Below, piece by piece: positions 32,601 to 63,829 of a stretch of DNA of 64,000 nucleotides (its first letter is position 1; each line of letters opens with the position of its first letter). The notes below the pieces were generated by a model. It made no database searches and was not told where the DNA came from. It worked only from the letters and a program-made list of their open reading frames with translations. A program made the translations under genes and the position numbers. Source of the stretch: Bacteroidota bacterium (GTDB taxonomy: Bacteria; Bacteroidota; Bacteroidia; Bacteroidales; B18-G4); assembly GCA_018831055.1 (NCBI GenBank), contig JAHJRE010000139.1, forward strand, positions 38,380 to 102,379, given 5' to 3'.

Positions 32601-32719
32601 AATGGTTGGCTCAATCAACGCATCCAGCATGTATTGTCTCCATCTGTTTTATCAGGGTTGTTTTACAGGATTTCTTGATTTTCTTATTGTGGGGTAGAGT
32701 AAATTGGTGAGATGCTGGG

Positions 32720-32840
32720 CAGGTTACAGGTTGCAGGCTGCAGGTTGCAGGAGTTTGGGTTTGAGTTATGAGTTATGAGTTATGAGTTATGAGTTTAGCT
32801 TCCTGCAGCTTGAAACCTGTATCCTGTAACTTGAAACCTG
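32720..32840. repeat. Heptanucleotide-phased three-block array forming a long imperfect hairpin
   Basis: Seventeen in-phase 7-mers: CAGGTTA CAGGTTG CAGGCTG CAGGTTG CAGGAGT TTGGGTT (TGAGTTA)x4 TGAGTTT AGCTTCC TGCAGCT TGAAACC TGTATCC TGTAACT TGAAACC. The last block is the inverted complement of the first. Confidence 0.8.
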
Positions 32841-32862
32841 CCCCCCTTTTACCTTCCTCCTC

Positions 32863-46488: not shown

Positions 46489-47805
46489 ATGGAATGGAGA
46501 AAAGAAATCCGGATATTATTCTGGATAGCGGCGTTTTTCCTGTTTGCCTATTTTCTGCCTCTCGACAGTATCCGGTTTAATGAGGCGGTTTTTGCCATGC
46601 TGGATCTGGCGAAATGGTATGCCAGGGAACATGTGATCTTATGTTTGCTGCCGGCTTTTTTTATTGCCGGAGTAATCGCGGTGTTTGTGAGCCAGGGTTC
46701 GGTATTGAAATATTTCGGTGCCAACGCGAAAAAGTGGCTGGCCTATACAGTGGCATCGGTTTCAGGAACCATCCTTGCGGTATGTTCCTGCACTATTTTG
46801 CCATTGTTCTCAAGTATTCACAAAAGGGGAGCAGGATTGGGACCTGCCATTGCTTTTTTGTATTCCGGCCCTGCCATTAATATCCTGGCTATCATCCTTA
46901 CTGCCCGGATTCTGGGTTGGCAGCTCGGGCTTGCCCGTGTAGTGGGTGCGGTAGTCTTCAGTGTGCTGATCGGGCTGATCATGTCGATGATTTACCGCAA
47001 GGAAGAAAGAAAAAAGGCTGAAGAACAGATGAATGTGATGGTTGAACCGGAAAGCAGGCCTCTCTGGCAAACGGCTTTTCACTTTTTTGTGCTTGTACTT
47101 ATTTTGGTGATGGTGAACTGGGGCAAACCCGGCAATGATGTCCAACAGGGTTTATGGTATTTTCTCTGGTCTCAGAAATGGCTGATCACTGCAGTACTTT
47201 CCCTTTTCCTGGCTTATTCCCTGATCAAAGTACTGAAGATCAAATGGTGGTATGTATTATTAACTGCCCTTGCTGTGATGGTCACAGCCATTGCTTTTGC
47301 GAATCCCATAATTCCTTTTGTAACCGGACTGGCCGGATTAACGGTGATTACCCTGATGAGCGGCGGAGAAAACCGTGAATGGACGATCTCAAGCTGGGAT
47401 TTTGCCAAACAAATTATGCCTTTGCTTGCGCTCGGGGTGCTGGTGGCCGGTTTTCTGCTGGGCTCAACCCATGATGAAACACAGATACCAGGAATTATAC
47501 CGAATGAATGGATATCTTCATTAGTTGGTGGTAATTCGTTGTTTTCCAATTTCTTCGCTTCCATCGTGGGAGCGTTTATGTACTTTGCTACACTTACTGA
47601 GGTTCCCATTTTACAGGGTTTGATTAATTCAGGTATGGGACAGGGGCCTGCTCTGGCGCTTTTGCTGGCCGGGCCATCGTTGTCACTGCCCAATATGCTG
47701 GTGATCAGGAGTGTTATGGGTACACAGAAAACCATCGTATATGTTTGTCTGGTGGTTGTTATGGCAACCCTGAGCGGTTTGATTTATGGTATAATGGTCA
47801 ACTAA
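46489..47805 (+). CDS. arsP: ArsP-type permease (PF03773-like two-domain permease; organoarsenical efflux candidate)
   Basis: 438 aa with multiple TM helices. The conserved block TILAVCSCTILPLFSSIHKRGAGLGPAIAFLYSGPAINI includes the vicinal Cys-x-Cys. Confidence 0.7.
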   Translation: MEWRKEIRILFWIAAFFLFAYFLPLDSIRFNEAVFAMLDLAKWYAREHVILCLLPAFFIAGVIAVFVSQGSVLKYFGANAKKWLAYTVASVSGTILAVCSCTILPLFSSIHKRGAGLGPAIAFLYSGPAINILAIILTARILGWQLGLARVVGAVVFSVLIGLIMSMIYRKEERKKAEEQMNVMVEPESRPLWQTAFHFFVLVLILVMVNWGKPGNDVQQGLWYFLWSQKWLITAVLSLFLAYSLIKVLKIKWWYVLLTALAVMVTAIAFANPIIPFVTGLAGLTVITLMSGGENREWTISSWDFAKQIMPLLALGVLVAGFLLGSTHDETQIPGIIPNEWISSLVGGNSLFSNFFASIVGAFMYFATLTEVPILQGLINSGMGQGPALALLLAGPSLSLPNMLVIRSVMGTQKTIVYVCLVVVMATLSGLIYGIMVN

Positions 47806-47816
47806 AATTCTGAAGA

Positions 47817-48236
47817 ATGAAAATTCTGATACTTTGTACCGGTAACTCCTGCCGCAGCCAGATGGCAGAAGGTTTTCTCAAGTCCTTCGATGCGGAGATT
47901 GAAGTTTCTTCTGCGGGAACCAATCCTGCGGAGCAGGTTCATCCCAAAGCCATCCAGGTGATGAAAGAAGCAGGTATTGATATTTCCGGAAACCGGCCCC
48001 GACTGGTCGATGAATTCCTGGATCAGGAATTTGATTTTGTGATCACTGTTTGCGACGGGGCCAAAGAATCCTGCCCGGCTTTCACAGGAAAGGTGAAACA
48101 CCGCTTGCATATTGGTTTTGAAGACCCTGCAGCCGCTACCGGAACGGAAGAAGAGATCATTAAAGTTTTCAGGACTGTAAGGGACCAGATCAAAGCGCAA
48201 TTCCTGGAGTTTTATAAAAAAGTAAGTGAAAAATGA
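47817..48236 (+). CDS. arsC: Arsenate reductase, LMW-PTPase/thioredoxin-coupled type
   Basis: [19 protein letters not shown] carries the CX5R P-loop. Downstream Cys residues ([10 protein letters not shown]) fit the disulfide cascade. Confidence 0.9.
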
Positions 48237-49279
48237 AAAAACGACTTAAATTCTTAGACCGCTATCTCACGTTGTGGATATTCCTGGCTATGTTTATTGG
48301 TGTATTCTGGGGCTACTTTGATCCGGGTATTGCGGAATTCTGGGACACTTTCTCCTCAGGTACAACCAATATCCCCATCGCCATAGGCCTTATCCTGATG
48401 ATGTATCCCCCGTTGGCAAAGGTCAGGTATGAAGAGTTGCCGCGGGTTTTCAGGAATGTAAAGATACTCGGGTTGTCGCTGGTGCAGAACTGGCTTATCG
48501 GACCGGTGCTGATGTTTGTCCTGGCCATAGTTTTTCTCCGGGGTTACCCGCATTATATGACCGGACTGATCCTGATAGGGCTGGCCCGTTGCATAGCCAT
48601 GGTTATTGTCTGGAACGACCTGGCAAAAGGGAATCGTGAGTATGCCGCCGGACTGGTGGCGTTTAATTCCATTTTCCAGGTGCTGTTTTTTTCTTTTTAC
48701 GCCTATGTTTTTATTACCGTTATTCCAGGATGGCTGGGTATGGAATCTTTTGCTGTGGATATTACCATCCGGCAAATTGCCATCAGCGTTTTTATTTATC
48801 TCGGTATTCCTTTTATTGCAGGATTTCTTACCCGGTTTATCCTGATTCGCATAAAGGATAAGGATTGGTATCACCGTAAGTTCATTCCGAAAATCAGTCC
48901 GATCACTTTGATAGCCTTACTATTTACTATCCTGGTAATGTTCTCCATGAAAGGGGAATATATCGTCAAGATCCCGCTGGATGTTGTCAGGATAGCTATT
49001 CCGCTGATCATCTATTTCGTGGTGATGTTCCTGGTTTCTTTCTTTATGGGCAAAAAGATTGGGGCGGATTACTCAAAAACGACCACCATTGCTTTTACGG
49101 CTGCCAGTAACAATTTTGAGCTTGCCATTGCGGTGGCGATTGCTGTTTTCGGGATCAATTCAGGAGAGGCTTTTGCCGCGGTGATAGGGCCGCTGGTGGA
49201 GGTGCCGGTGCTAATTTCGTTGGTGAATGTTTCTTTGTGGTTAAAAAGGAGATATTTTTCTATAGATAGGTTATTGTAA
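48233..49279 (+). CDS. acr3: ACR3 family arsenite efflux transporter
   Basis: 348 aa with about ten TM helices. The N-terminus [18 protein letters not shown] and the block [10 protein letters not shown] (conserved Cys) are typical of ACR3. It overlaps arsC by 4 nt. Confidence 0.9.
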
Positions 49280-49330: not shown

Positions 49331-50461
49331 TTAAATAACAAACTCCCAAAAGTTATCCCTGGTAATACTCTTATAATTGTCTCCATATTGCTCTACCCAT
49401 GTTTTAGGAGCAATTTTCCTGGCTTTTTTGTATTTTATTTCATAGGCATATAGTTTTCCGCCCTTTTCTTCAATATAATCGATTTCGGCACCGGTATAGG
49501 TTCTCCAGAAATAGGAGGAAAGGAAATTCTGAGTGTATTCCAGGTATTTAAACCTTTCTGAAATGATGAAATTTTCCCACAATGCTCCAACATCATTTCT
49601 AATATTGAAACTATTGAAGTTTTCTACCAAGCAGTTTCTGACACCAAGATCCCAAAAATATATTTTATTTCTCTTAGATACCTCTTTCCTGAGATTCCGG
49701 CTATAACCACCTAAGCGGAATATGATAAATGCTTTTTCAAGTAATTCAATATATGATGCCACGGTTTCCTGGCTTAGCTTCAGGTTCAGTGCAAGCTCGT
49801 TGACGGATGTTTCAGAGCCGATTTGAAGCGCCAGTAGTTTTAAAAGCGATGAAATCTTTGAATTATTTTTTATTGATGATAATTCGAAAACATCCTTATA
49901 CAAATATGCAGAAGTAAGTTCACGTAAATACTTTTCTTTGGAATGGCCTGATGTGTGATGAAAAATCACCGGATACATGCCATATATCATGTATTCTTCC
50001 AACTTGCTTTGTAGTTCAAATGCATTGACTTGAACAGACAATTCAGATAATGAGATCGGATACAGAATATGAGTGGAGGTTCGCCCTGTCAGTGGTTCCT
50101 TGACTTTGTTTGCCAGATCAAAAGATGAAGAACCTGTTGCAAGAATTTTTAATGAAGGCCAATTGTCATGAATTATCTTCAGGTTGATGCCTATATCAGG
50201 AATTCTTTGTGCTTCATCAATAAAGAGAATGTCATATCCTGATACCAATAACTTCATACGATCAAGGTCACGTGAAGAGAGTACATCTGCATATTTTATC
50301 TCATCCGCATTTATTTTAAGTACTGATTCACTTGTACCGCTCAGGACATCATTGGAAAGTGTTGTTTTTCCGGTTTGCCTTGCACCATATAAAATAATGA
50401 TGTTTCTGTTGTTTTTCAGGTCTTCCTGGATAGAATTAAATATTTTCCGGACTATTTTCAT
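49331..50461 (-). CDS. AAA-type ATP-binding protein with DUF4143-like C-terminal domain
   Basis: Walker A is YGARQTGKTTL and Walker B is ILFIDEAQ. The C-terminal block YFWRTYTGAEIDYIEE is typical of this family. Confidence 0.8.
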   Translation of the reverse strand: MKIVRKIFNSIQEDLKNNRNIIILYGARQTGKTTLSNDVLSGTSESVLKINADEIKYADVLSSRDLDRMKLLVSGYDILFIDEAQRIPDIGINLKIIHDNWPSLKILATGSSSFDLANKVKEPLTGRTSTHILYPISLSELSVQVNAFELQSKLEEYMIYGMYPVIFHHTSGHSKEKYLRELTSAYLYKDVFELSSIKNNSKISSLLKLLALQIGSETSVNELALNLKLSQETVASYIELLEKAFIIFRLGGYSRNLRKEVSKRNKIYFWDLGVRNCLVENFNSFNIRNDVGALWENFIISERFKYLEYTQNFLSSYFWRTYTGAEIDYIEEKGGKLYAYEIKYKKARKIAPKTWVEQYGDNYKSITRDNFWEFVI

Positions 50462-52846: not shown

Positions 52847-54334
52847 TCACGGATCCACAACGATGAAAACGGTCTGTATCACGGGTGAGTTGCCGGTTCC
52901 TTGTTTCAGGAATATAACGGCAGCCCAGCCACCGGGTAGCGGAAGGTATTCGTTACCGTATGCCACTGCATCGTCATACATCTGCTGAGCCCAGGTAAGG
53001 GTTGACAGTGCGGGCATACCACCGCTGGCGCTTCCGTTCCACTGAGGCACGTCGAGCAGCCAGAATGCGCCCTGGATATCGGCCCATGTGTAACCCGGAT
53101 ACCAATCGAGGTGGTTCATGATCCAGTTGGCCATATCCCAGTTATCGTTTGCGATGACTGCGGGCATGAGTTCCGGATACAATGAGCTGTAAACATCCAT
53201 GTTGTATGTAGCGCCAACATTAATGGTTACCTGGTGGTCGAAACACCATGAAGCATAGGTTCCGTTTGAAATTTCGTACCCTGCGGGGATATTGGTAAGA
53301 ATAGCATCCAGATATCCTCCCATGCTGCCGGGAGCTGTTTGTCCGCCTACTTTGTAAGTAGCTGTTGCAGGAAGGTTCATATAGGGTGCAAAGATAAAGT
53401 CTGCATCAGGTGCACACATACCCAGTACGAAGTCAACGATGCCGTCGCTTCCCTGCGGGATAACCTGAGCGTCGTAAATGGTCCAGGTTTTAAAGGGCTT
53501 GTAGTTGAAGCCTGCGCCATCCCTTACAAGGATGAAGAGTTTGAAGTCAAACTTGTCGACCAGGTCATCGTAATCGGCATAAGTAACACAAAGCGGTCCT
53601 TCGCCAAGTATGTCTTCATTGTCGAAAGTAGCAACAAGGTTGTCGTTCCTGTAAAGTTCGATTTTTGCGATGGCAGGCATGTCGATCTGAAGTCCATAAG
53701 TCTGCTGCTCATAGAGAGATCCGATGTAATCATTCGGATTCTTGGCACAAAGGTCACCAAAGAAACATTCTTCACGGATGGTAACTTCATCAACTACGAA
53801 CCAGTCGAAACCAAAGCTCGTGTAAACATCGGGCTGGAAGCAGATCACTTCAACCGGGATCTCGAGTTTCAGGAATTCGAGTACATCAATGGTGAAGGGA
53901 ACCGGTTTGCTGATGTAACCGGCAAAGGTACTTCCAACCTCGGGTGTAGCGGCAATGATAACATCATCGCTCATGTCATTCGGAGTCTGGTTGTCGTCCA
54001 TGAACAAAAACTGGGTAACCGTGTAAGTCACATTGGGATCGTAAGGTAATTTGATGGACTGTGTATACGGTTTCTCAACATTGTTGATGGTGAGATAAAA
54101 TACTTCGGGGAAGTATTCTACGCCATTGATGACGACCTTGGCATAATCGACGATTTCCATGCTGCAGTTCGGCACGCCGTCGTTTTTGAAGTTTGAAGGA
54201 TCCACCTGGTCACCGGCGAAAGTTACTTCGATCTCAGTTGGCAGGGTGGTCTCTTCCTGCTGGTCTTTTTTACACATGGTAAAAACCAGCGTGATCATAA
54301 TGGGTATTACCCATAGGAGTTTCAGGTTTTTCAT
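52847..54334 (-). CDS. Lipoprotein of unknown family, paralogue A
   Basis: ORF 52847..54370; the likely start is ATG 54334 (MKNLKLLWVIPIMITLVFTMCKKD). Long blocks are shared with the upstream paralogue: YTQSIKLPYDPN, FGFDWF, CFFGDLC, NPNDYIGSLYEQQ, GSDG(I/V)VDFVLG and NWIMNHLDWYPG.TW.DIQGAFWLLD. Confidence 0.6.
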   Translation of the reverse strand: MKNLKLLWVIPIMITLVFTMCKKDQQEETTLPTEIEVTFAGDQVDPSNFKNDGVPNCSMEIVDYAKVVINGVEYFPEVFYLTINNVEKPYTQSIKLPYDPNVTYTVTQFLFMDDNQTPNDMSDDVIIAATPEVGSTFAGYISKPVPFTIDVLEFLKLEIPVEVICFQPDVYTSFGFDWFVVDEVTIREECFFGDLCAKNPNDYIGSLYEQQTYGLQIDMPAIAKIELYRNDNLVATFDNEDILGEGPLCVTYADYDDLVDKFDFKLFILVRDGAGFNYKPFKTWTIYDAQVIPQGSDGIVDFVLGMCAPDADFIFAPYMNLPATATYKVGGQTAPGSMGGYLDAILTNIPAGYEISNGTYASWCFDHQVTINVGATYNMDVYSSLYPELMPAVIANDNWDMANWIMNHLDWYPGYTWADIQGAFWLLDVPQWNGSASGGMPALSTLTWAQQMYDDAVAYGNEYLPLPGGWAAVIFLKQGTGNSPVIQTVFIVVDP

Positions 54335-54391
54335 TTTTGTAAGATTTAGGGTTATTGCATTCATTTTCAATTTATAAGTTTGGTGGAATTA

Positions 54392-55888
54392 TTATTGTGT
54401 TATTTCAATAAAGACAATGATAAGATTGGGGTGTGCTGCTCCCTGTGGTGTTCCCTGTTCCGTGAAAATAACAGCAGCCTGTTCTCCCCAGGATGGTTCA
54501 AATCCTGTCCCGTATGCATCTGCATCGGTCTTCATCTGTTGTGCGTACTGGAGTTGGGTAACATCGGGTATACCACCGGTTGCGCTGCCATTCCAGGGTT
54601 CCTGGAGGTCGAGCAGCCAAAAGGCTCCCTGTATATCTTCCCAGGTATGTCCCGGATACCAGTCGAGATGGTTCATGATCCAGTTCACTTTATCCCACTG
54701 TTCATTTTCCAGGAAATCGGGACCATAAAAGGTATATAAAGAACTATATACGTCCATGCTGTATTCGTTACCATTTGCAACAGATAGTTGATGATCCAGG
54801 TTCCAGGAGGCGTTGTTCCCATTAGATACATCAAATCCTGAGGGAATATCCGAAAGCTTGGAGTTTATATAGCCTCCCCCGGGATTTCCCGGAGCATAAT
54901 TTGTTGTTTTTAGTGAAGCTGTATATGGTATATTCATATAGGATGGCAGGAAAAAGTCGGCATCGGTAGCACAGGGTCCGAGCACGAAATCTACCACACC
55001 ATCTGAGCCGTCGGGTATCATTTCGTTATCGGAGAATGACCAGTACTGAAAATAACGGTAATCAAAGTCACTTCCTGTTTTAACAAGCACATACAACAGG
55101 AACTCGAACAGGTCAGGATTATGCAGGTAATCTTTGTATGTTATGCACAAGGGTTGTCCTTCACCCAGCCAGGATTCATTGGAAAACTCGCCCTCGAATT
55201 CGCCGTTACGGTATACTTCTACCTTAAATATGGCCGGCATGTCCATTTGCAGTGGACCTGATTGTTGTTCGTAAAGCGAACCGATATAATCATTGGGATT
55301 TTGAACGCAAAGGTCACCAAAGAAACACTGCTCCAGGATGGCGATCTCCTCAATGGCAAACCAGTCGAATCCGAAACTTTCCCATTGATCCGGCTCAAAG
55401 CATAAAACCTGCACCGGGATCTCAAGCTTCTTAAATTCCTCAACCCGAATGCTGAAGTTAACAGGAGTACTGACATACATGGCAAAATCGCTGCCAACGG
55501 TCGGTATGGAGGCAATGATAACATCGTCGCTCTTGTCATTGGGTGTCTGCTGGTCATCCATCAGGTGGAATTGTTCTACCGTAAAGAGATTGCTTGAATT
55601 AGGGTCGTAGGGTAATTTGATGGATTGGGTATAGGTCCTGGTTACACCATTAATATTAAGGTAAAAGACTTCGGGATAATAAGATGTTCCGTTGATGATG
55701 GCCTTGGCGTAATCGGCCGTTTCTATATAACAAAGGGAGTTGTATTCTTTCTGAGCGAGCTGGTCGATCTTTATTCCGGTGAAGGATATCTCAATTTCTT
55801 TGGGTTGCTCCTCTTCCTGGTTTTTTTTACACCCGGTAAGTGATACAATAATTATGAGAAGAATTGTATATACTGCTACGCCCTTCAC
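54392..55888 (-). CDS. Lipoprotein of unknown family, paralogue B
   Basis: A GTG start gives MKGVAVYTILLIIIVSLTGCKKN, a canonical lipobox. It is collinear with paralogue A over its full length and lies 21 bp upstream of it. Confidence 0.6.
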   Translation of the reverse strand: MKGVAVYTILLIIIVSLTGCKKNQEEEQPKEIEISFTGIKIDQLAQKEYNSLCYIETADYAKAIINGTSYYPEVFYLNINGVTRTYTQSIKLPYDPNSSNLFTVEQFHLMDDQQTPNDKSDDVIIASIPTVGSDFAMYVSTPVNFSIRVEEFKKLEIPVQVLCFEPDQWESFGFDWFAIEEIAILEQCFFGDLCVQNPNDYIGSLYEQQSGPLQMDMPAIFKVEVYRNGEFEGEFSNESWLGEGQPLCITYKDYLHNPDLFEFLLYVLVKTGSDFDYRYFQYWSFSDNEMIPDGSDGVVDFVLGPCATDADFFLPSYMNIPYTASLKTTNYAPGNPGGGYINSKLSDIPSGFDVSNGNNASWNLDHQLSVANGNEYSMDVYSSLYTFYGPDFLENEQWDKVNWIMNHLDWYPGHTWEDIQGAFWLLDLQEPWNGSATGGIPDVTQLQYAQQMKTDADAYGTGFEPSWGEQAAVIFTEQGTPQGAAHPNLIIVFIEITQ

Positions 55889-56144: not shown

Positions 56145-59100
56145 TCACAGTGCATCCTCTATTTTTTTCAGGTCTTCCCTGCAGGAAATGGTATATTCAT
56201 GATCATCTCCCAGGGTGCCGGCGATGACTGGTATCTCCTGACTGAGCATATCGTATGCTTCCCTTAATCTACCTGATGCATAGAGGATATTAACCATCTT
56301 AACTGTTGATTCTATGCTTCGCATATGTTCTGCTCCCAGGTTTTGGAGGTAGCTGTTTCTTGCTTCTGAAATGGCAGTCATGGATTTTTCCAGGTTGTTT
56401 TGCCTGTAGAGCATATCAGACATTTTTTCTTTTGCATAGGCTACATCCAGGATTTTTTCCAACTGGTTGAACAACTTTATGGATTTCTCGAAATAATGCT
56501 CAGAAAATGCGTATTCTTCTGCATTGCCTAAGATTACCCCGGCATCGCGGCTCAGGTCTGCTGCTTCTTCCACGGCATTTATTTTCAGGAAGGATTCAAT
56601 AGCATCATCAAACCTTAATCCTGCTGATTCATTGCGCTTCAGTGCTGCAAGCGATTTGGCAATATTTCCCATTCTCAGCGCTTTTTTATACACATCATCC
56701 GAATCCGAAAGCAAGTCGAGTGATTTCTTATAGTTTTCAAGGGCGTCCTCGTACTTTCCCATAGCCTGATAAATGACCCCGAGGTCGTTCAAATGGCCTG
56801 TCAAACGGGTTTTATCACCGGTAAGCTCGTCCATTTCAATTGCCTGATGGATAGAATTTATTGCATTTTCATAGTCTTCCTTTAACTGGTACACATAGCT
56901 GATGGAGCTATAACGGTCCGACATCGATAAGGCATCATCCAAACTTTCATCAAGGATCAGGGCCTGATAAAAATGCTTCAGGGCCATGTCGTAATCACCT
57001 TTTGCCTGATAAGCCTGGGCAATGTTTTTCTGATGGAAGGATTGCTGAGCGCGGTCATAGATTTCCTCATCGATTTCAACTGCTTTCATATAATATTCGA
57101 TGGCCTGGTCGTAATCCCTTTTGCTGTAATAAGCTGCTCCGATATTGTTGAATTTATCGACCATTTCATTCCGGTTACCCAACTCTTCATCAATAGATAA
57201 GCCTTGCCGGTAATATTCAATGGCATCATCGTAGAATCCCATGATCTGCTGTAGTTGCCCCATGTGATAATAATCGGTTGACTGGCTGTGCAGATTGTTT
57301 GCCTTAACATGGATGTCGAGCGATTTCCTGTAATAGTCGAGCGCTTCTTCCATCTGGCCTGAATTCCTGAGAAGAAATCCCAATGTGGAATATATTTCAG
57401 CCAGTTTTCGTGAATAATCATCACTGCATCGGTCGTAAGCTTTTCCGGCTTCTTTATAATAAACCAAAGCTTCCGGAATATTATCCAGTTCCTGGTATAA
57501 TACTCCCAGGTTGGCCAGGTAATCTCCGGCAACACCGTAATCATTCTGGTTTTCAGCGATCGTTACCGCGATTTTTGCACTTTCCAGCGCCTGTTCTTTT
57601 TGTCCGGCCAGGAACAGTATTGTGCCTATGTTATTGTAACTTCTTGCTATCAATGATTGATCCTGTGCTTTCTTGGCAGCTTCCAAAGCCTGATGATAGT
57701 GATTATAGGCTTCCTGATAGTCGGGTACGTAACGGTAAATTTCTCCCAGGCTGTTTAGGTTCACAGCCTGATGATAAGGATCATCTTTATCTAAAGCCAG
57801 GGAGAGAGCCTTGTAGTAATAGTTAAAGGCTTTATTTCTCCTTTGTTGCCTGGTTTCAACATCTCCTTGCAATTCAAGGGTTTTAATCTTACAATCAGCA
57901 TCAAGATAGTTTTCATTGGCTATTTCCCAGGCTTGCTCGAGATAATAATCCGCATCCGACAAATAGCCTTGCGAAAGTGCTTCAGCGCCAAGTTCCTGGT
58001 ATAACTCCCACGATTTCCTGAAATAATCGCCGGACTCCTCAGTCCTTTCCATTCTTCCATATATCCTTCCCAGATTTCCTGCACAAAAAGCCATGTTGGA
58101 GATATCCCCGTTATCTCTGGCGGTATGGAACCCTTTCAGGTAATACTCTGCTGCTTTATCTTCCTGTTCGTTGAAGCTGTAAGAAGCTCCAATATTGTTG
58201 TAATAGATGGAAAGGTTATCCTGAATATCATGTTTCTCAGCAATTTCAATGGCTTTGGTGAAGTACACTATGGCTTTATCGGGTTTCTCCATCTCCTGGA
58301 AACAACGTCCTGCATAATTATAATCACGGGCTGCTTCTTTCCATTTCTCCTGCGTTTTAAACTCATCCGTTGCCTGCAGGAAATACTCCAGGGCATGTTC
58401 GTATTTACCGGGCGACATGGATATACTGCCCATCTCATGAAAGATATCTCCCAGTTTTTCATTATTTCCGGTTTTTCGCAGTATCATCGCCGCCTTATTG
58501 AATAGTTCAATAGCCTGGTCATGGTTACCTGTCTGGGTTTGACAATCTCCCATATTATAAAGGATGTCGGACTGAAACGATTCTTGTACCGGATTGCTTG
58601 CCAGGTCCATGGCAAGTTCATAATACCAAAGGGCTTCGCTGTAATCTCCCTGGCTATGGTACATCCTGGCCTCATTCAGGTATTTATCTAATAAAGAAGC
58701 CCTGGCTTGTTTCATTTCCTGGGTTGGATTTTTAATTTTTTCCCTTAGTTCAAATAATTCGAGTTCTTTGATTGCTTTGCTGTTCTTATCGTTTATCAGG
58801 GGAATTGCAAGTTCCAGTTGTTCTATGGCTTGTCCGAAAAGGGATTGCCTGGCGTACAGTTTGGTCAGGGAATCGCGGAGAACCACTTCATTTTCTGTTG
58901 TGCCGGCGTGGCCGTTTATGGTCAGGGCAATGCTGTAATGCTGGATGGCATAAGATTCGTTGATCTCGATCAGCATTTTGGCCAGGTTCTGGTAGTTTTC
59001 AAGCAGGATACGGCGTGTTCCCGGACTGGTTTCCAGGATCATACGTTTGGAGAAATAGCTGAGGTATTCGTGTTTGAACAGGTCTGCTGCTTTTTCAAGA

Positions 59101-61985
59101 TATCGGGCGGCATTGTCGTATTCTTCCAGGAGAATGTGTATGATGCCCGCCATGTGCATGCACCTCATCATTTCACGGTAATCACGTGAACTTTCATACC
59201 TGGCAAGGGCTTTACGGAAAAAGGTCAGCGCAGGATAATATTGCCCGCCAAGATAATTGGCTATTCCAATGGAGAAATATGTCTGCGTAATCCTGAAATC
59301 ATTGTTCATTTTGTGATAGTATTCCAGGGCCTTGAAATATTCCGCGGCAGCCTCCCCGGTTTTGTTTTCATCCAGGAAGAGATTACCTTTTAACACATAT
59401 GCTTTGCCTAACCAAAGATTGCTTTCTGTTTTGATGAATCCTTCAATTGCCTTGTCAAAACTGGTATGTGCCTTACCCATTTCACCTGTGAGGTGGAAAT
59501 ATTGACCGATGTATAAATAGTCGATACTTGTGTTGAATACATCATCAAAACGGGAATCGATCTCAAGGCATTTCTGGAGGTAATCCAGAGCCAGTTCTTT
59601 TTCACCGCGGTAAAGATGGTTAGCCCCGAGATTGCAGAGATTGGTGGCTATTCGTCCGAGGTAATTAAACTTGCTGTTGATTTCAAGGGCCTGCTCAAAA
59701 TATTCGATGGCAAGATCGAACTCACCCATGGCGCTGTAATTGTTGCCGTACATGTTAAGGCTATGGGCAATGCTCGATTCTGAAGCATATTCGCGGTTCA
59801 GATCCAGTGATTTCCCGTAATAATGATGGGCATTTTCATATTCCCCGAAATCTTTATACAAGGAGGCAATGCCTTCATAATGCGAAGCAATGGCGGTTTG
59901 GTCATCAACGAGTTCTGCAATGGCAATTGCTTTATTGTACAGGGTGACTGCCCTGCGGTAATCGCCGGTATCACCGATAAAGGAAGCTTTCAGACTGTAT
60001 GCATAGGAAAGCATGGAGTTGTTATCATCCCGCTGCGCTATTTCTATTGCCAGATCAAAGGCATTTTCTGCATCCTCCGGTTTACCCTGCCCTGCGAGGT
60101 AATTTCCGAAACGGATGAGGGCCAGTACATGATTGCCGATACCTTCTTTTCCGTTGGCAAACTCCATGGTTTCCCGGTATTGAGCCATGGCTTCTTCATG
60201 CTGGAACAAATTCTCATATGCCATGGCAAGGTAGAACATACCATCGAAGATCAGGGAGTCGATACCGGAGAGCTTTGCTTCTTCAAGCATTTTCCGGGCA
60301 GTATCAAGGGATTCAGGGAAGCGGTTTTCCCAGTCGAAGGCAGTGATCTTCAGTGTGTAACACTCTGACTTTTTCTGGTGGCCTTCTTCATCCAGGACTT
60401 TTATCTGGCTCAGGAAGGCCAGGGCCTGGTCGGCATGAGACTGACATTCTGCCATCGTTCCCTGGTTGTAACCTTCCCATCCTTTTTCCAGCTCAAACCC
60501 TGCATTTTCCAGGATTTCCTTTGCTTCCTGACTGTTATCCACTTCTTTCTTTGAGAATTTCAGGGTAGTCGGGTCGATCAACCCGCTGGCATATTTGGAA
60601 TGCTTATGATATTGGGCTTTGATATCAGGATATTGATCCATCCTGTCGCCAAAGATATTCTTGAAAGCTTCTGCCACTTTCCGGTGGAGAATTCGTTTTT
60701 CCTTATTGCTGAGCTGGTCGTAAATGTATTTGTGCTGTAAGGTATGCGTGAAATGGTAAATATCCAGGAAAACTTCATCGATGCTCAGGGTTTCCTCGTT
60801 GTCGATGATCAACCCTTTATCTTTACTAAGTTTTTTCAGGCTTTCCACCAGTTCAAGCTCATCCTCTATTCCCAGGAGTTTCTGGATCACCTGCAGGTAA
60901 AAGTCTTCACCGTTCACAGCGGCATAATTCATGATCTTCCGAAGATTTTCACCCAGAAGGTTAAGCCTTTCCTTGATTACCTCAGTAGTGGTTTCAGGGA
61001 TATTATCGAGAGCATCGCTTTTCAGGTGAAACACCCCATTGGGATCGGCGTAGATGCCGCCGTTTTCCTTGAGTGAATCCAATATCTCACTGACAAACAG
61101 GGCTCTTCCTTTTGTATAGTTGAATAATGATAAAGCCAGGTCTTCAGGAAAATCATTCTGAGGGAACTTTTGCGTGATCAGATCCTGGATCTCCCCGTCA
61201 CTGAAAGAGGGAACATCAATCCGGATCAGCCAGGTATCTTCGCGCTCACTGTCGTCTTTCGTGTTGATACGCATTAACCTCGAAAGCATGGCCGTAAATG
61301 GGTGCTGTATGACCTCGTTGCTCCCGTCCTGGTTAATGATATTTCTTTCCGTTACCTCATGAGGCCGGTACGTACCAATCAGCATAATGGGGAAGGGGAC
61401 ATTCTTAAGTGACCGGCCCAGGGCAAAAATGAAATCTATACTTGATTTGTCGGCCCATTGAAGGTCGTCAATAAACAGGATGACAGGCTTGATCTCCGCC
61501 AGCTCCCTTAACTGGAATTCCAATGCACGTTGCTTCTCGTCGGGTTTTCGGGTTTCCTCTTCCTCTTTGTCGACGAAATGGGTTTTAACCCCTTTGATGA
61601 GCTCCAAACCCATGGCGGCAAAGGCATTTGATTCAATGCCTTTTTCTGCTACGTTTCCGAAAATCTTGAAAATGCGTTTCATCTTATCACCAGGCTGATT
61701 GCGCTTTTCCTTCTCACCGGCTTTTATCTGCTTTTCAATCAGTTCCACCGCATGGTTGAAAGGAGCATAGGCGTTATGGATGCCGTCGTCGGCAGTACAT
61801 TCGCTTTGGGCAACGAAACAATCTTCCCTGTGCTTTTCCAGGAATTTTCTCACCAATGTCGATTTTCCCGAACCGGGATTTCCTGAAACCAGGATGATCT
61901 TTCCAAGATTGTTGAGGGTTTCCTGCAGGGCGGTTTCGAGGATTTGTATCTCGTTCTCCCTTCCGACGAAAATTTGTTGACGCAT
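56145..61985 (-). CDS. Giant STAND/AAA_16-type NTPase fused to a very long TPR array, with no recognisable effector domain
   Basis: 1946 aa. The N-terminus is FVGRENEIQILE, Walker A is GNPGSGKST and Walker B is VILFIDDLQWAD. From roughly residue 520 to the C-terminus it is continuous TPR-like 34-residue helical repeats (many A..Y..AL.I motifs). Confidence 0.8.
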   Translation of the reverse strand: MRQQIFVGRENEIQILETALQETLNNLGKIILVSGNPGSGKSTLVRKFLEKHREDCFVAQSECTADDGIHNAYAPFNHAVELIEKQIKAGEKEKRNQPGDKMKRIFKIFGNVAEKGIESNAFAAMGLELIKGVKTHFVDKEEEETRKPDEKQRALEFQLRELAEIKPVILFIDDLQWADKSSIDFIFALGRSLKNVPFPIMLIGTYRPHEVTERNIINQDGSNEVIQHPFTAMLSRLMRINTKDDSEREDTWLIRIDVPSFSDGEIQDLITQKFPQNDFPEDLALSLFNYTKGRALFVSEILDSLKENGGIYADPNGVFHLKSDALDNIPETTTEVIKERLNLLGENLRKIMNYAAVNGEDFYLQVIQKLLGIEDELELVESLKKLSKDKGLIIDNEETLSIDEVFLDIYHFTHTLQHKYIYDQLSNKEKRILHRKVAEAFKNIFGDRMDQYPDIKAQYHKHSKYASGLIDPTTLKFSKKEVDNSQEAKEILENAGFELEKGWEGYNQGTMAECQSHADQALAFLSQIKVLDEEGHQKKSECYTLKITAFDWENRFPESLDTARKMLEEAKLSGIDSLIFDGMFYLAMAYENLFQHEEAMAQYRETMEFANGKEGIGNHVLALIRFGNYLAGQGKPEDAENAFDLAIEIAQRDDNNSMLSYAYSLKASFIGDTGDYRRAVTLYNKAIAIAELVDDQTAIASHYEGIASLYKDFGEYENAHHYYGKSLDLNREYASESSIAHSLNMYGNNYSAMGEFDLAIEYFEQALEINSKFNYLGRIATNLCNLGANHLYRGEKELALDYLQKCLEIDSRFDDVFNTSIDYLYIGQYFHLTGEMGKAHTSFDKAIEGFIKTESNLWLGKAYVLKGNLFLDENKTGEAAAEYFKALEYYHKMNNDFRITQTYFSIGIANYLGGQYYPALTFFRKALARYESSRDYREMMRCMHMAGIIHILLEEYDNAARYLEKAADLFKHEYLSYFSKRMILETSPGTRRILLENYQNLAKMLIEINESYAIQHYSIALTINGHAGTTENEVVLRDSLTKLYARQSLFGQAIEQLELAIPLINDKNSKAIKELELFELREKIKNPTQEMKQARASLLDKYLNEARMYHSQGDYSEALWYYELAMDLASNPVQESFQSDILYNMGDCQTQTGNHDQAIELFNKAAMILRKTGNNEKLGDIFHEMGSISMSPGKYEHALEYFLQATDEFKTQEKWKEAARDYNYAGRCFQEMEKPDKAIVYFTKAIEIAEKHDIQDNLSIYYNNIGASYSFNEQEDKAAEYYLKGFHTARDNGDISNMAFCAGNLGRIYGRMERTEESGDYFRKSWELYQELGAEALSQGYLSDADYYLEQAWEIANENYLDADCKIKTLELQGDVETRQQRRNKAFNYYYKALSLALDKDDPYHQAVNLNSLGEIYRYVPDYQEAYNHYHQALEAAKKAQDQSLIARSYNNIGTILFLAGQKEQALESAKIAVTIAENQNDYGVAGDYLANLGVLYQELDNIPEALVYYKEAGKAYDRCSDDYSRKLAEIYSTLGFLLRNSGQMEEALDYYRKSLDIHVKANNLHSQSTDYYHMGQLQQIMGFYDDAIEYYRQGLSIDEELGNRNEMVDKFNNIGAAYYSKRDYDQAIEYYMKAVEIDEEIYDRAQQSFHQKNIAQAYQAKGDYDMALKHFYQALILDESLDDALSMSDRYSSISYVYQLKEDYENAINSIHQAIEMDELTGDKTRLTGHLNDLGVIYQAMGKYEDALENYKKSLDLLSDSDDVYKKALRMGNIAKSLAALKRNESAGLRFDDAIESFLKINAVEEAADLSRDAGVILGNAEEYAFSEHYFEKSIKLFNQLEKILDVAYAKEKMSDMLYRQNNLEKSMTAISEARNSYLQNLGAEHMRSIESTVKMVNILYASGRLREAYDMLSQEIPVIAGTLGDDHEYTISCREDLKKIEDAL

Positions 61986-62148
61986 GATTAAAATTTTAGA
62001 ATAGTCTTAATTGCAAGTTTTCAGATTGTTATCTTATTGTTGTTCGTGAATTACCTTTTCTTCAGCTTTAGGGGCTCAAAATACAAATTTCCCGACAATG
62101 AAAAGGCGAAATATCTATTGATTTTCGGGATATGGTAGCAAATAGTTA

Positions 62149-62246
62149 CAGGTTTCAGGGTTCAAGTTGCAGGTTGCAGCCTGTTACCTGTAACCTGTAA
62201 CCTGAATCCTGAATCCTGTCGCTTGCAACCTGCACCATGGAACCTG
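62149..62246. repeat. Heptanucleotide-phased inverted array (CAGGTTN / NAACCTG), second locus
   Basis: Fourteen in-phase 7-mers: CAGGTTT CAGGGTT CAAGTTG CAGGTTG CAGCCTG TTACCTG TAACCTG TAACCTG AATCCTG AATCCTG TCGCTTG CAACCTG CACCATG GAACCTG. It lies in the divergent region between the STAND gene and the gene starting at 62375. Confidence 0.8.
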
Positions 62247-62374
62247 TGAATGGATATTAATCGCTCCCGAAACTCATTATATTTTTTACTTTTACATCTC
62301 ATTAGAAACTGACATTTTAATGTTTTATTTACCCATTCATTCCACGTTGATTATGAATCTTTAAAGGGGAAAAG

Positions 62375-63829
62375 ATGATTAAAAAAGCATTGTTTGTTTT
62401 AATTCTTTTCGTTTTGATTTCCCCTGCATTGCAGCAGATTTTTGGAATCGTTGCTATTAAACCCTTACATGGATCCTTTACACTTCCTCCTAAGCCGACC
62501 TTAGAAAAACTTAACTGGCAGGAATGGTTTTCTGGTGGATTTCAAAATGATTTTAATTCCCGACTGGAAGAAAATGTAGGATTCAGGAATTACCTTATAA
62601 GAATATTATATCAATTGGATTTTTCTTTGTTTAAAGAAGTCCACACAGTGGGTGTTGTTGTAGGTAAGGATAATTATTTATATGAGAACTCATATATCAA
62701 CGCATATAATGGAACGGATTTCTCAGGCACGCACAGAATAGTTGATCAGAGTCACAAAATACAGTTAGTAAAGGATAAACTTCACGAAACCGGAAAAGAT
62801 TTATTGATCCTTTTTGCTCCCGGGAAAGGAAGCTTTTATCCTGAGTATATTCCGGAAAAGTTTCTGGGTGATACTGATGACACAACAAATTATGCTTATT
62901 ATGTAAGGTGCCTTAATGAATTTGATGTTCCTCTCCTGGATTTCAAAGATTATTTTACCCGGATTAAAAGCGAGTCACCATACGCATTATTCCCCAAAGC
63001 AGGGATTCATTGGAGCACATATGGTGCCGCGCTGGTTTCCGATAGTCTCGTCGGGTATTTAAACAGCCATTACGGCCTAAGGCTGCCTAAGTTTGAATAT
63101 CATGCTCAACCCGTAAACGATTCATTAAAATATACCGGTTTTGATTACGACATTGGAGTTGGACTGAATATTTTGTCGTATATAAATCAACCTGATCTCG
63201 CAATTGTAGATATAGATTATCCGGATATCGAGGACTCGCTTAGGCCCGATGTTCTTGTTATTGGTGACAGTTATTTTATTAACCTGATCAGAGCCGGTTT
63301 CCCTGAAGCTTATTTCGATAATTATCAGTTTTGGTATTATAACAGGACTATTTATCCTCGACCTCCTGATTCTTCAAATAATTTGAAGGATTATGATACG
63401 ATGAAAGAAATCGCTAAATATGATATTATTCTCATTATAGCTACCGATGCAAACCTCTGGAAATTTCCTTTCGGAATTATAGATGAACTGTATAACAGGA
63501 TGGTCATGGAGGATAGTAGCGATAAGGTTAAATATTACAGGGATCTGTATGTTGATCATTTACCTTTGATTTTTCCCGAAAATTCTCAGCGTTTTGACAG
63601 GATTAAAGCATTGTTAAATAAGCAAGGCACAATCAACGAGGTTCATGGTAGTTATCTGGACTATCTCGACCGTGACCGTTTTTCCCTATCCCTGAAACTG
63701 ATAAAATATCAGTCTGGATTGTATAGAATGGCCGTTAGCAAAGCAAAAACAAGGCAAATATCCGTCGGCGAAATGATTAACCTGGATGCCCGGTGGATGG
63801 TTAACGATGAAAAAAGATACAGATATTAG
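62375..63829 (+). CDS. Membrane-anchored protein, AlgX/AlgJ-like SGNH-type (possible polysaccharide O-acyl modification)
   Basis: An N-terminal TM anchor is present. GIHWSTYGA resembles the DxHW block of AlgJ/AlgX-type proteins, and VIGDSYF resembles their GDS block. The resemblance is weak and judged by eye only. Confidence 0.4.
   Translation: MIKKALFVLILFVLISPALQQIFGIVAIKPLHGSFTLPPKPTLEKLNWQEWFSGGFQNDFNSRLEENVGFRNYLIRILYQLDFSLFKEVHTVGVVVGKDNYLYENSYINAYNGTDFSGTHRIVDQSHKIQLVKDKLHETGKDLLILFAPGKGSFYPEYIPEKFLGDTDDTTNYAYYVRCLNEFDVPLLDFKDYFTRIKSESPYALFPKAGIHWSTYGAALVSDSLVGYLNSHYGLRLPKFEYHAQPVNDSLKYTGFDYDIGVGLNILSYINQPDLAIVDIDYPDIEDSLRPDVLVIGDSYFINLIRAGFPEAYFDNYQFWYYNRTIYPRPPDSSNNLKDYDTMKEIAKYDIILIIATDANLWKFPFGIIDELYNRMVMEDSSDKVKYYRDLYVDHLPLIFPENSQRFDRIKALLNKQGTINEVHGSYLDYLDRDRFSLSLKLIKYQSGLYRMAVSKAKTRQISVGEMINLDARWMVNDEKRYRY

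Follow-up and report, generated by a model that had tools for sequence, protein, structure and literature searches.

The window analysed here is a stretch of 64,000 nucleotides from a Bacteroidota bacterium (GenBank assembly GCA_018831055.1, contig JAHJRE010000139.1, positions 38,380 to 102,379), which contains one very large gene on its reverse strand. The gene encodes a protein of 1946 amino acids (aa) in which a nucleoside triphosphatase (NTPase) module of the STAND type (signal transduction ATPases with numerous domains) is followed by a long array of tetratricopeptide repeats (TPR). An earlier note, made from the letters alone, had described this open reading frame (ORF), its Walker A and Walker B motifs and an array of more than 1,000 residues running practically to the last residue. 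All of these are as it described them (Table 1). The note went on to propose a previously undescribed sensor-plus-partner system. We find that the gene is an unusually large output-less AAA_16/TPR STAND NTPase, and not a new system of that kind.

The reading frame starts with ATG and its translation opens with MRQQIFVGRENEIQILE; residues 6-17, where the AAA_16 domain begins, read FVGRENEIQILE. AAA_16 scores 78.7 bits against a Pfam cutoff of 32.6 (E 9e-22 for the whole protein and down to 1e-22 for segments), and a candidate sensor-1 arginine, R207 in GTYRP, is present and invariant in the subfamily alignment, called A2. Residues 203-560 have no Pfam domain above cutoff in the segment search; they are specific to the subfamily and conserved within it, the A2 alignment spanning all of residues 1-575. 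With the whole protein, Pfam detected TPR_12 in 19 stretches (E 3e-112), TPR_MalT at 124 bits against a cutoff of 45, and also TPR_1, TPR_2, TPR_8 and TPR_10. A hidden Markov model (HMM) derived from the protein's own repeats recognised 28 units with a period of ~40 aa, in blocks 627-969, 1102-1356 and 1384-1838, and the final 110 aa are still TPR_12-like (E 9e-7). The TPR array thus comprises at least 28-30 units and reaches the C-terminus; the linker between its first two blocks looks like helical, degenerate TPR by eye. Taken together, the features of the STAND superfamily are present: a P-loop nucleotide-binding domain (NBD) with Walker A and a Walker B of the hhhhDD type, helical and winged-helix domains (HD and WHD), and a C-terminal repeat sensor made of TPR.

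Table 1. Features of the STAND gene and selected neighbours, in positions of the window
Feature	Position	Strand	Basis
Whole gene, STAND (AAA_16) NTPase + TPR array, 1946 aa	56145..61985, stop codon included	-	ORF list, translation, Pfam
AAA_16 nucleotide-binding domain, residues 6-202	61380..61970	-	Pfam; AlphaFold2 beta-alpha P-loop core
Walker A GNPGSGKST, residues 35-43	61857..61883	-	Translation; G38, G40, K41 invariant in A2
Walker B VILFIDDLQWAD, residues 168-179	61449..61484	-	Translation; D173, D174, L175, Q176, W177, D179 invariant in A2
Helical domain + winged-helix-like arm + helical linker, residues 203-560	60306..61379	-	A2, NCBIfam, predicted model
TPR block 1, residues 561-969	59079..60305	-	Repeat HMM, 9 recognisable units from residue 627; Pfam TPR from ~553-582
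Linker, residues 970-1101, no family hit	58683..59078	-	No repeat-HMM unit; 0 Pfam families at E<=1
TPR block 2, residues 1102-1356, 7 units, 40-aa period	57918..58682	-	Repeat HMM; Pfam TPR_12 and SNAP
TPR block 3 + kinesin-light-chain-type TPR tail, residues 1357-1946, at least 12 units	56148..57917	-	Repeat HMM; Pfam
Lipoprotein gene pair lipoA/lipoB	54392-55888 and 52847-54370 (52847-55888 together)	Same strand as STAND gene	Signal peptide + lipobox
DUF4143/AAA_14 ATPase	49331-50461	-	Full-length PADLOC PDC-S01 match, E 5e-143; 5.7 kb from STAND gene

The protein is predicted to be cytoplasmic and soluble. Neither a signal peptide nor a membrane segment was found in the translation or by hydrophobicity, the maximum Kyte-Doolittle value over a 19-residue window being 1.31, and since the NTPase begins at residue 6 there is no room for a signal peptide. 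An identical protein was found on three metagenome contigs, the longest of 128 kb, where its neighbours are typical of Bacteroidota (a TonB-dependent receptor with CarboxypepD_reg, DUF5723 and an OmpA/PD40/TPR protein).

The note had seen no output domain in this protein, and the searches bear it out. Pfam searches at E<=1 with the whole protein and four segments of it returned no effector or helix-turn-helix (HTH) domain, all matches being to P-loop families in the N-terminal part and to TPR families over the remainder, and neither was there an effector or HTH among the NCBIfam matches to the 1946-aa protein. The NTPase and arm (residues 6-463) align to positions 483-884 of TIGR03903, a TOMM kinase/cyclase fusion, at 114 bits against a cutoff of 705.75; AfsR matches the TPR region alone, at 139 bits against 1430. 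In PADLOC there was no match to Avs (antiviral STAND) or any other STAND defence model, only generic TPR models and a weak P-loop match to mad8 (E 2e-5). Among PDB sequences the A2 profile had no meaningful match, the hits being to P-loops only, at E ~2e-3. The 389 bp upstream of the gene (61986-62374), which according to the note held no ORF that could supply an effector, indeed contain none longer than 46 aa. MutL_C at residues 452-501 was sub-threshold (~20 bits against a cutoff of 25) and was dismissed as noise. Assignment as a KAP NTPase was likewise rejected: KAP_NTPase scored 18 bits against 20, and with a maximum hydrophobicity of 1.31 the P-loop domain has no transmembrane helices.

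Structure prediction agrees with these searches. Residues 1-575 were modelled with AlphaFold2 from a 15-sequence subfamily alignment (predicted local distance difference test, pLDDT, 68.7; predicted TM-score, pTM, 0.67), giving a P-loop core followed by helical and winged-helix-like, mostly helical elements. The best PDB matches of this model in Foldseek were CED-4, Avs3 (8dgc) and Cdc6/ORC (E 8e-8 to 1e-6). TM-scores for these matches are low (~0.3), owing to the several domains of the model and its moderate quality. The fold of residues 1-575 is therefore best described as a predicted NBD-HD-WHD of the STAND/ORC type; no other fold was matched. Neither this model nor the Pfam segment searches revealed a cryptic domain in the N-terminal module or at the C-terminal end, the two places where the note had thought one might hide.

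To what extent the protein stands apart can be judged from its relatives. An exhaustive phmmer search with residues 1-560 against 1.84 billion cluster representatives gave 38,213 hits at E<=1e-3. The top group, of ~30 clusters at 50% identity, is sharply separated (E<=1e-64, 31-52% identical, the full 560 residues aligned), and we treat it as the subfamily. When metagenome contigs were scanned with the A2 profile, the matches listed, on generic DDLQWAD-type patterns, comprised cousins at <=30% identity and no subfamily member. Members range from fragments up to the 1946 aa of the window protein, full-length ones reaching ~1,950 aa, and their C-termini are TPR-like. Of 32 top-scoring representatives for the A2 profile, 28 have the NTPase within 4 residues of the N-terminus. 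Offsets of 12 and -43 occur in two others, and the one at -43 is a fragment truncated at its N-terminus. Each of the last two, P0197 and P0203 (offsets 1395 and 1500), is a multi-module kinase/BTAD/cyclase protein whose score is a sum over several AAA_16 modules, and both therefore fall outside the subfamily. All subfamily members with an intact N-terminus thus start directly at the NTPase.

Invariant positions of A2 are G38, G40, K41, D173-D174-L-Q-W177, D179, R207, H228-P229 and the E62-C63 pair, and the window protein retains all of them. It departs from the other members in one respect. Between Walker A and Walker B these carry a hydrophobic insert, AGTxWIxLIPVVGxFAxxGIETYKAY, with nearly invariant W, P and G, at A2 columns ~115-140, corresponding to residues ~100-135 of the window protein (window ~61580-61690). 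In the window protein the W...IPV.G insert is diverged and non-hydrophobic, and pLDDT is below 50 at residues 91-147. We considered whether the insert could be a KAP-like membrane element serving as a built-in effector, and rejected this: in the relatives it is a single short segment with hydrophobicity of 0.95-1.69, which is too short and too weakly hydrophobic, and in the window protein it is diverged.

Lack of an output domain is not peculiar to this subfamily. In the next tier of relatives, 58 of 115 representatives also begin at the NTPase and are ~850-1000 aa long, and the precomputed Pfam lists of P0004-P0017 contain AAA_16 and TPR families only; effector-less architecture is therefore common. 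Such proteins are abundant and publicly annotated as 'tetratricopeptide repeat protein' or 'predicted ATPase', so that the words 'previously undescribed' in the earlier note were an overstatement. What is unusual in the window protein is mainly the size of its TPR array. Other relatives do bear outputs: Pkinase (Ser/Thr kinase), Guanylate_cyc (some with SAM), BTAD/Trans_reg_C (SARP, Streptomyces antibiotic regulatory protein) and GerE (LuxR), and one, P0027, a TIR domain.

Several known systems share parts of this architecture. As in MalT and the LAL (large ATP-binding LuxR-family) regulators, an N-terminal AAA_16 NTPase is followed by a helical arm and a TPR-like sensor, matched by TPR_MalT, and an autoinhibition released by ligand, with subsequent ATP-dependent oligomerisation, is presumed here by analogy. 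However, the window protein has no C-terminal LuxR/GerE domain, no HTH being found at E<=1 in the whole protein or in its last 299 or 110 aa, and therefore cannot act alone as a transcription factor; its TPR region is also three to four times longer. The AAA_16-TPR proteins fused to AfsR/SARP, kinase or cyclase modules are the nearest output-bearing relatives, AfsR and TIGR03903 being the best NCBIfam matches to the TPR region and to the NTPase with its arm, respectively. Mycobacterial cyclase-AAA_16 proteins and PknK are of the same fused kind as AfsR. In all of these a SARP, kinase or cyclase module stands at the N-terminus, while the window protein starts with its NTPase, lacks the N-terminal Trans_reg_C and BTAD module of SARP/AfsR regulators and scores far below the cutoffs of both models. 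Avs proteins likewise consist of a STAND NTPase and a large TPR-like sensor, and Avs3 is among the best structural matches, but they carry a nuclease, SIR2, TIR, protease or other effector; the window protein carries none and matches no Avs model in PADLOC.

The closest counterparts in domain content and order are the output-less AAA_16 and TPR proteins of ~850-1000 aa, which are widespread in metagenomes. They differ in that they are 24-30% identical to the window protein over the NTPase module and have TPR regions of ~350-450 aa, as opposed to ~1,350 aa here. In the literature, we found an experimentally established function for none of them, and no characterised output-less AAA_16-TPR protein for Bacteroidota. 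Finally, the TPR_12/TPR_10 units with their 40-42-aa period recall NPHP3 and kinesin light chain. The NPHP3 likeness is sub-threshold (TPR_NPHP3 62 bits against a cutoff of 100; NPHP3_N also below threshold), and with NPHP3 being a eukaryotic ciliary protein, the resemblance is limited to the type of repeat.

Next, we examined the two lipoproteins encoded 256 bp downstream, which the note had named as paralogous, of no recognisable family, and as possible suppliers of an output in trans. The gap and the paralogy were confirmed. The two products are 55% identical, have signal peptides ending in the lipobox-like LTGC and FTMC, and contain no Pfam domain. They belong to a family with more than 270 relatives in metagenome-assembled genomes (MAGs) of Bacteroidales type. 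The AlphaFold2 model of the lipoprotein (pLDDT 84) is a chain of beta-sandwich domains with a C-terminal alpha/beta domain, and has no significant PDB match in Foldseek. A two-part system in which the STAND protein does the sensing and the co-transcribed downstream lipoproteins provide the output is suggested by the shared strand, the 256-bp gap and the failure to find an intrinsic-terminator-like site within it. The comparative data contradict this. A scan of genome contigs with a 30-sequence alignment gave 75 lipoprotein loci with flanks of up to 10 kb, and when these were searched by tblastn with the N-terminal module of the STAND protein, not one had a STAND relative within 10 kb (at a single locus there is a TPR match 7 kb away, which is unrelated). 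Conversely, no lipoprotein occurred in the nine STAND subfamily loci, whose contexts were retrieved by exact look-ups of representatives. For the lipoprotein family, tandem copies accompanied by a DUF4842 protein are instead the usual arrangement: in 30 of 76 loci a DUF4842/DUF4114 protein of ~600 aa is encoded upstream in the same direction, and two to five tandem copies are present in 39 of 76. Since they carry a signal peptide and a lipobox cysteine, the lipoproteins are exported and extracytoplasmic, in a separate compartment from the cytoplasmic STAND protein.

The closest MAG locus (L003, Bacteroidales M55B132) points the same way. It is collinear with the source contig (L001) on both sides of a gap of 13.4 kb: L003:7092-9650 corresponds to L001:179-2738 (two CbiA/Fer4 genes, a Nitro_FeMo-Co gene and DUF134), and L003:10040-14855 to L001:16131-20938 (lipoA, lipoB, UbiA and CPBP, at 66%, 69%, 76% and 60% identity). 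The 13.4 kb in between (L001:2738-16131, i.e. the window from 55856 onward and past its end) is missing from L003, where lipoA follows almost directly after the DUF134 gene. This stretch contains a 147-aa gene, DUF5723, a 352-aa TPR protein, an OmpA/PD40/TPR protein, AlgX and the STAND gene. The conserved unit is therefore the lipoprotein pair with UbiA and CPBP, with the STAND gene on the variable side. As far as comparative data allow, the lipoprotein-partner model is refuted, and we regard such a partnership as extremely improbable.

The note had also described the surroundings as an accessory-looking block. This fits the STAND gene, which lies in the missing stretch, but not the lipoproteins, UbiA and CPBP, which are conserved. 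Because the two genomes are distant (55-76% protein identity), the comparison shows variability and not necessarily recent mobility. There is also no compositional sign of recent transfer of the STAND gene, its GC content of 0.444 and third-position GC (GC3) of 0.498 being close to the window means of 0.451 and 0.496. In contrast to the window mean, the DUF4143 gene, whose PDC-S01 family is listed in PADLOC as a candidate single-gene defence family, is compositionally foreign (GC 0.355); AlgX (62375-63829) is also AT-rich (GC 0.371). Beyond DUF4143, an arsenic-resistance-like cluster was noticed in precomputed Pfam data at window ~46489-49279 (L001:22707-25497), made up of an SBF/Acr3-type transporter, an LMWPc (ArsC-type) phosphatase and an ArsP_1 permease.

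The heptad array that the note reported upstream of the gene is present, though it is not specific to it. The array, at 62145-62250, is palindromic and built of 7-nt units (CTGTAAC / CTGAATC and the inverse GTTACAG / GTTGCAG), and as single-stranded DNA would form a long hairpin (-26.6 kcal/mol, z -5.6). A second heptad element occurs at 32718-32842, 29 kb off, between two unrelated genes, flanking five GAGTTAT units; in all, the pattern has 10 matches where 0.13 are expected. A STAND-specific regulatory site was rejected because of this second copy, and the array looks like a dispersed intergenic repeat, similar to repetitive extragenic palindromic (REP) elements or miniature inverted-repeat transposable elements (MITEs).

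The sampled subfamily loci look like Bacteroidota, and no gene neighbour is conserved across all nine; in particular, the lipoprotein pair that the note had asked after is not conserved beside the subfamily. L159 has hydrogenase genes and a cluster with an extracytoplasmic function (ECF) sigma factor and DUF4252, L162 has Nqr and Mur ligase genes, P0171 is accompanied by an esterase, a methyltransferase and Fur, and L165 by unknowns with Fib_succ_major. In L159 (13901-17289), the genes downstream of P0168 on the same strand are two small genes, the ECF sigma factor (Sigma70_r2/r4_2), a 157-aa gene and two DUF4252 genes, with a Fic and HTH pair upstream; this layout was seen in one locus only. 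Among 43 neighbours taken from five loci and scanned with PADLOC, a sample too small for statistics, there was no validated defence system. Matches were candidate or generic only: PDC-S01/DUF4143, the Fic and HTH pair beside P0168 (PDC-S04/SoFic), and AAA+ and OmpA domains matching the IetA and ZorB models generically. Elsewhere, a GmrSD_N gene lies ~7 kb from P0175, and SUKH genes lie near P0314 and P0180. No copy of the STAND protein was detected in 50,697 phage records, and plasmid relatives are at <=27% identity only.

A recurrent neighbour was nevertheless found within one part of the subfamily. In L160, L164, L168 and L169, which represent four different 50%-identity clusters, a tandem-AAA+ protein of ~900 aa with two AAA and two AAA_lid_6 domains is encoded directly upstream on the same strand (L160:5961-8702, L164:1-2316, L168:1693-4386 and L169:2-319). 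It is 53-67% identical between loci, and the gaps to the STAND gene are 29, 51 and 203 bp; in L160 a SUKH+TPR gene lies in between. This gene, of 356 aa (SUKH/SMI1_KNR4 and TPR), recurs in L169 with 54% identity. Synteny is kept between L160 and L164, whose members are only 46% identical, and this points to vertical inheritance there. From the gene order, tandem-AAA+ and STAND form a real conserved pair, restricted to this sister lineage, and the tandem-AAA+ protein is a better lead than the lipoproteins. The lineage is ~33-35% identical to the window protein, and no homologue of the tandem-AAA+ or SUKH+TPR gene was found in the 64-kb window or in an extra 10 kb of L001. A similarity between the 352-aa gene of L001 and the SUKH+TPR gene of L160 (35% over 125 aa) was discarded as generic TPR similarity.

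Since neither a catalytic nor a DNA-binding output is present in cis, the output would have to be protein-protein. Most likely, the protein serves on its own as a TPR scaffold or switch gated by nucleotide. If it works in the manner of MalT, Apaf-1/CED-4 and Avs, the TPR array would fold back onto the NTPase in a resting, ADP-bound state and autoinhibit it. Once the TPR solenoid has bound its ligand, a protein or peptide, the autoinhibition would be relieved, ADP would be exchanged for ATP, and the NBD-HD-WHD modules would oligomerise. The oligomer might then cluster, sequester or hand over clients held by the TPR array, and these clients would be encoded elsewhere in the genome and not by the adjacent lipoprotein genes. 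As for its role, we lean, with somewhat better than even confidence, towards a signal-transduction ATPase of the AAA_16 (MalT/AfsR/cyclase-type) STAND branch that works alone in the cytoplasm, in regulation or scaffolding. This weighting follows from the signalling outputs of the relatives, the native composition and the synteny kept at 46% identity. The signalling domains of the output-bearing relatives in particular favour a regulatory or scaffolding role over one in abortive infection.

The regulatory or scaffolding role must be weighed against a number of observations that do not speak for it. The mechanistic steps given above are, for every member of the subfamily, taken over by analogy alone, and the quality of the AlphaFold2 model is no more than moderate (pLDDT 68.7), definition being poor at residues 91-147 and 359-413. 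TPR length varies two-fold in the subfamily, the 13.4 kb including the gene is missing from L003, and candidate defence-type genes (DUF4143, Fic and HTH, GmrSD, SUKH) occur near some members. The 13.4-kb absence and the variable TPR length fit a fast-evolving conflict gene equally well. Accordingly, an antiviral or conflict STAND resembling Avs deserves attention, in which the TPR array would recognise a phage protein and killing would occur in trans or through oligomerisation, e.g. because NTP is depleted or an essential host protein sequestered. Apart from the observations just listed, with candidate defence or toxin-immunity genes near four of the nine loci (PDC-S01/DUF4143; Fic and HTH; GmrSD_N with AAA/nSTAND5-like genes; SUKH), it would agree with the Avs3 match and with the TPR-like nature of most Avs sensors (PMC13581612). 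We nonetheless consider it rather unlikely. Lee et al. 2026 use two criteria for defence, effector content or proximity to defence genes, and list transcriptional regulators, TEP1 and NPHP3 among non-immune STANDs. Effector content is absent from the window protein, and no effector domain was seen in any subfamily member with an intact N-terminus. PADLOC gave no Avs or STAND defence match, and the neighbour matches are unvalidated candidates or generic domains. Phage copies and close plasmid copies are missing, the composition is native, the nearest output-bearing relatives carry signalling domains, and the synteny between L160 and L164 indicates vertical inheritance there.

Less probable still is that the giant output-less AAA_16-TPR proteins, with their Bacteroidota-like contexts so far, make up a new STAND class whose output is always supplied in trans, an idea we hold to be doubtful. 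Under it, the conserved tandem-AAA+ protein, whose gene appears to be co-transcribed with the STAND gene (SUKH+TPR recurring beside them), would be the partner in one lineage, and the window gene would, just as doubtfully, either have no partner or have a remote one. If this were true, the STAND oligomer would hand its clients to an unfoldase, as a stress or quality-control switch or a non-canonical immune mechanism. A partnership of the window protein itself with a tandem-AAA+ ATPase encoded far away in this genome is quite improbable: the pairing at four loci, with gaps of 29-203 bp, speaks for it, but the tandem-AAA+ gene is absent from L159, L162 and L165 as well as from the window and its extension, and the window protein is distant from the sister lineage and lacks the W...IPV.G insert that other members conserve. 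As regards a decaying, non-functional remnant that has lost its effector, the missing output domain and the diverged insert could be cited in its support. However, the 5.8-kb frame is intact, all subfamily-invariant catalytic motifs are retained, three independent assemblies yielded the identical protein, and the output-less build is common to all members with an intact N-terminus, which makes decay scarcely credible. The preferred reading thus remains that of a stand-alone scaffold or switch.

The value of the locus is mainly negative: the hypothesis of a lipoprotein partner falls, and the architecture proves to be common. Output-less STAND NTPases are numerous and none was found with a known function, so that a tractable example would be useful; this locus is not one, because it offers no conserved partner, effector or informative context. 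As useful by-products, the analysis provides a subfamily with its alignment A2, an abundant Bacteroidales lipoprotein family that pairs with DUF4842, and, in the tandem-AAA+ and STAND genes, a two-gene unit that is open to testing.

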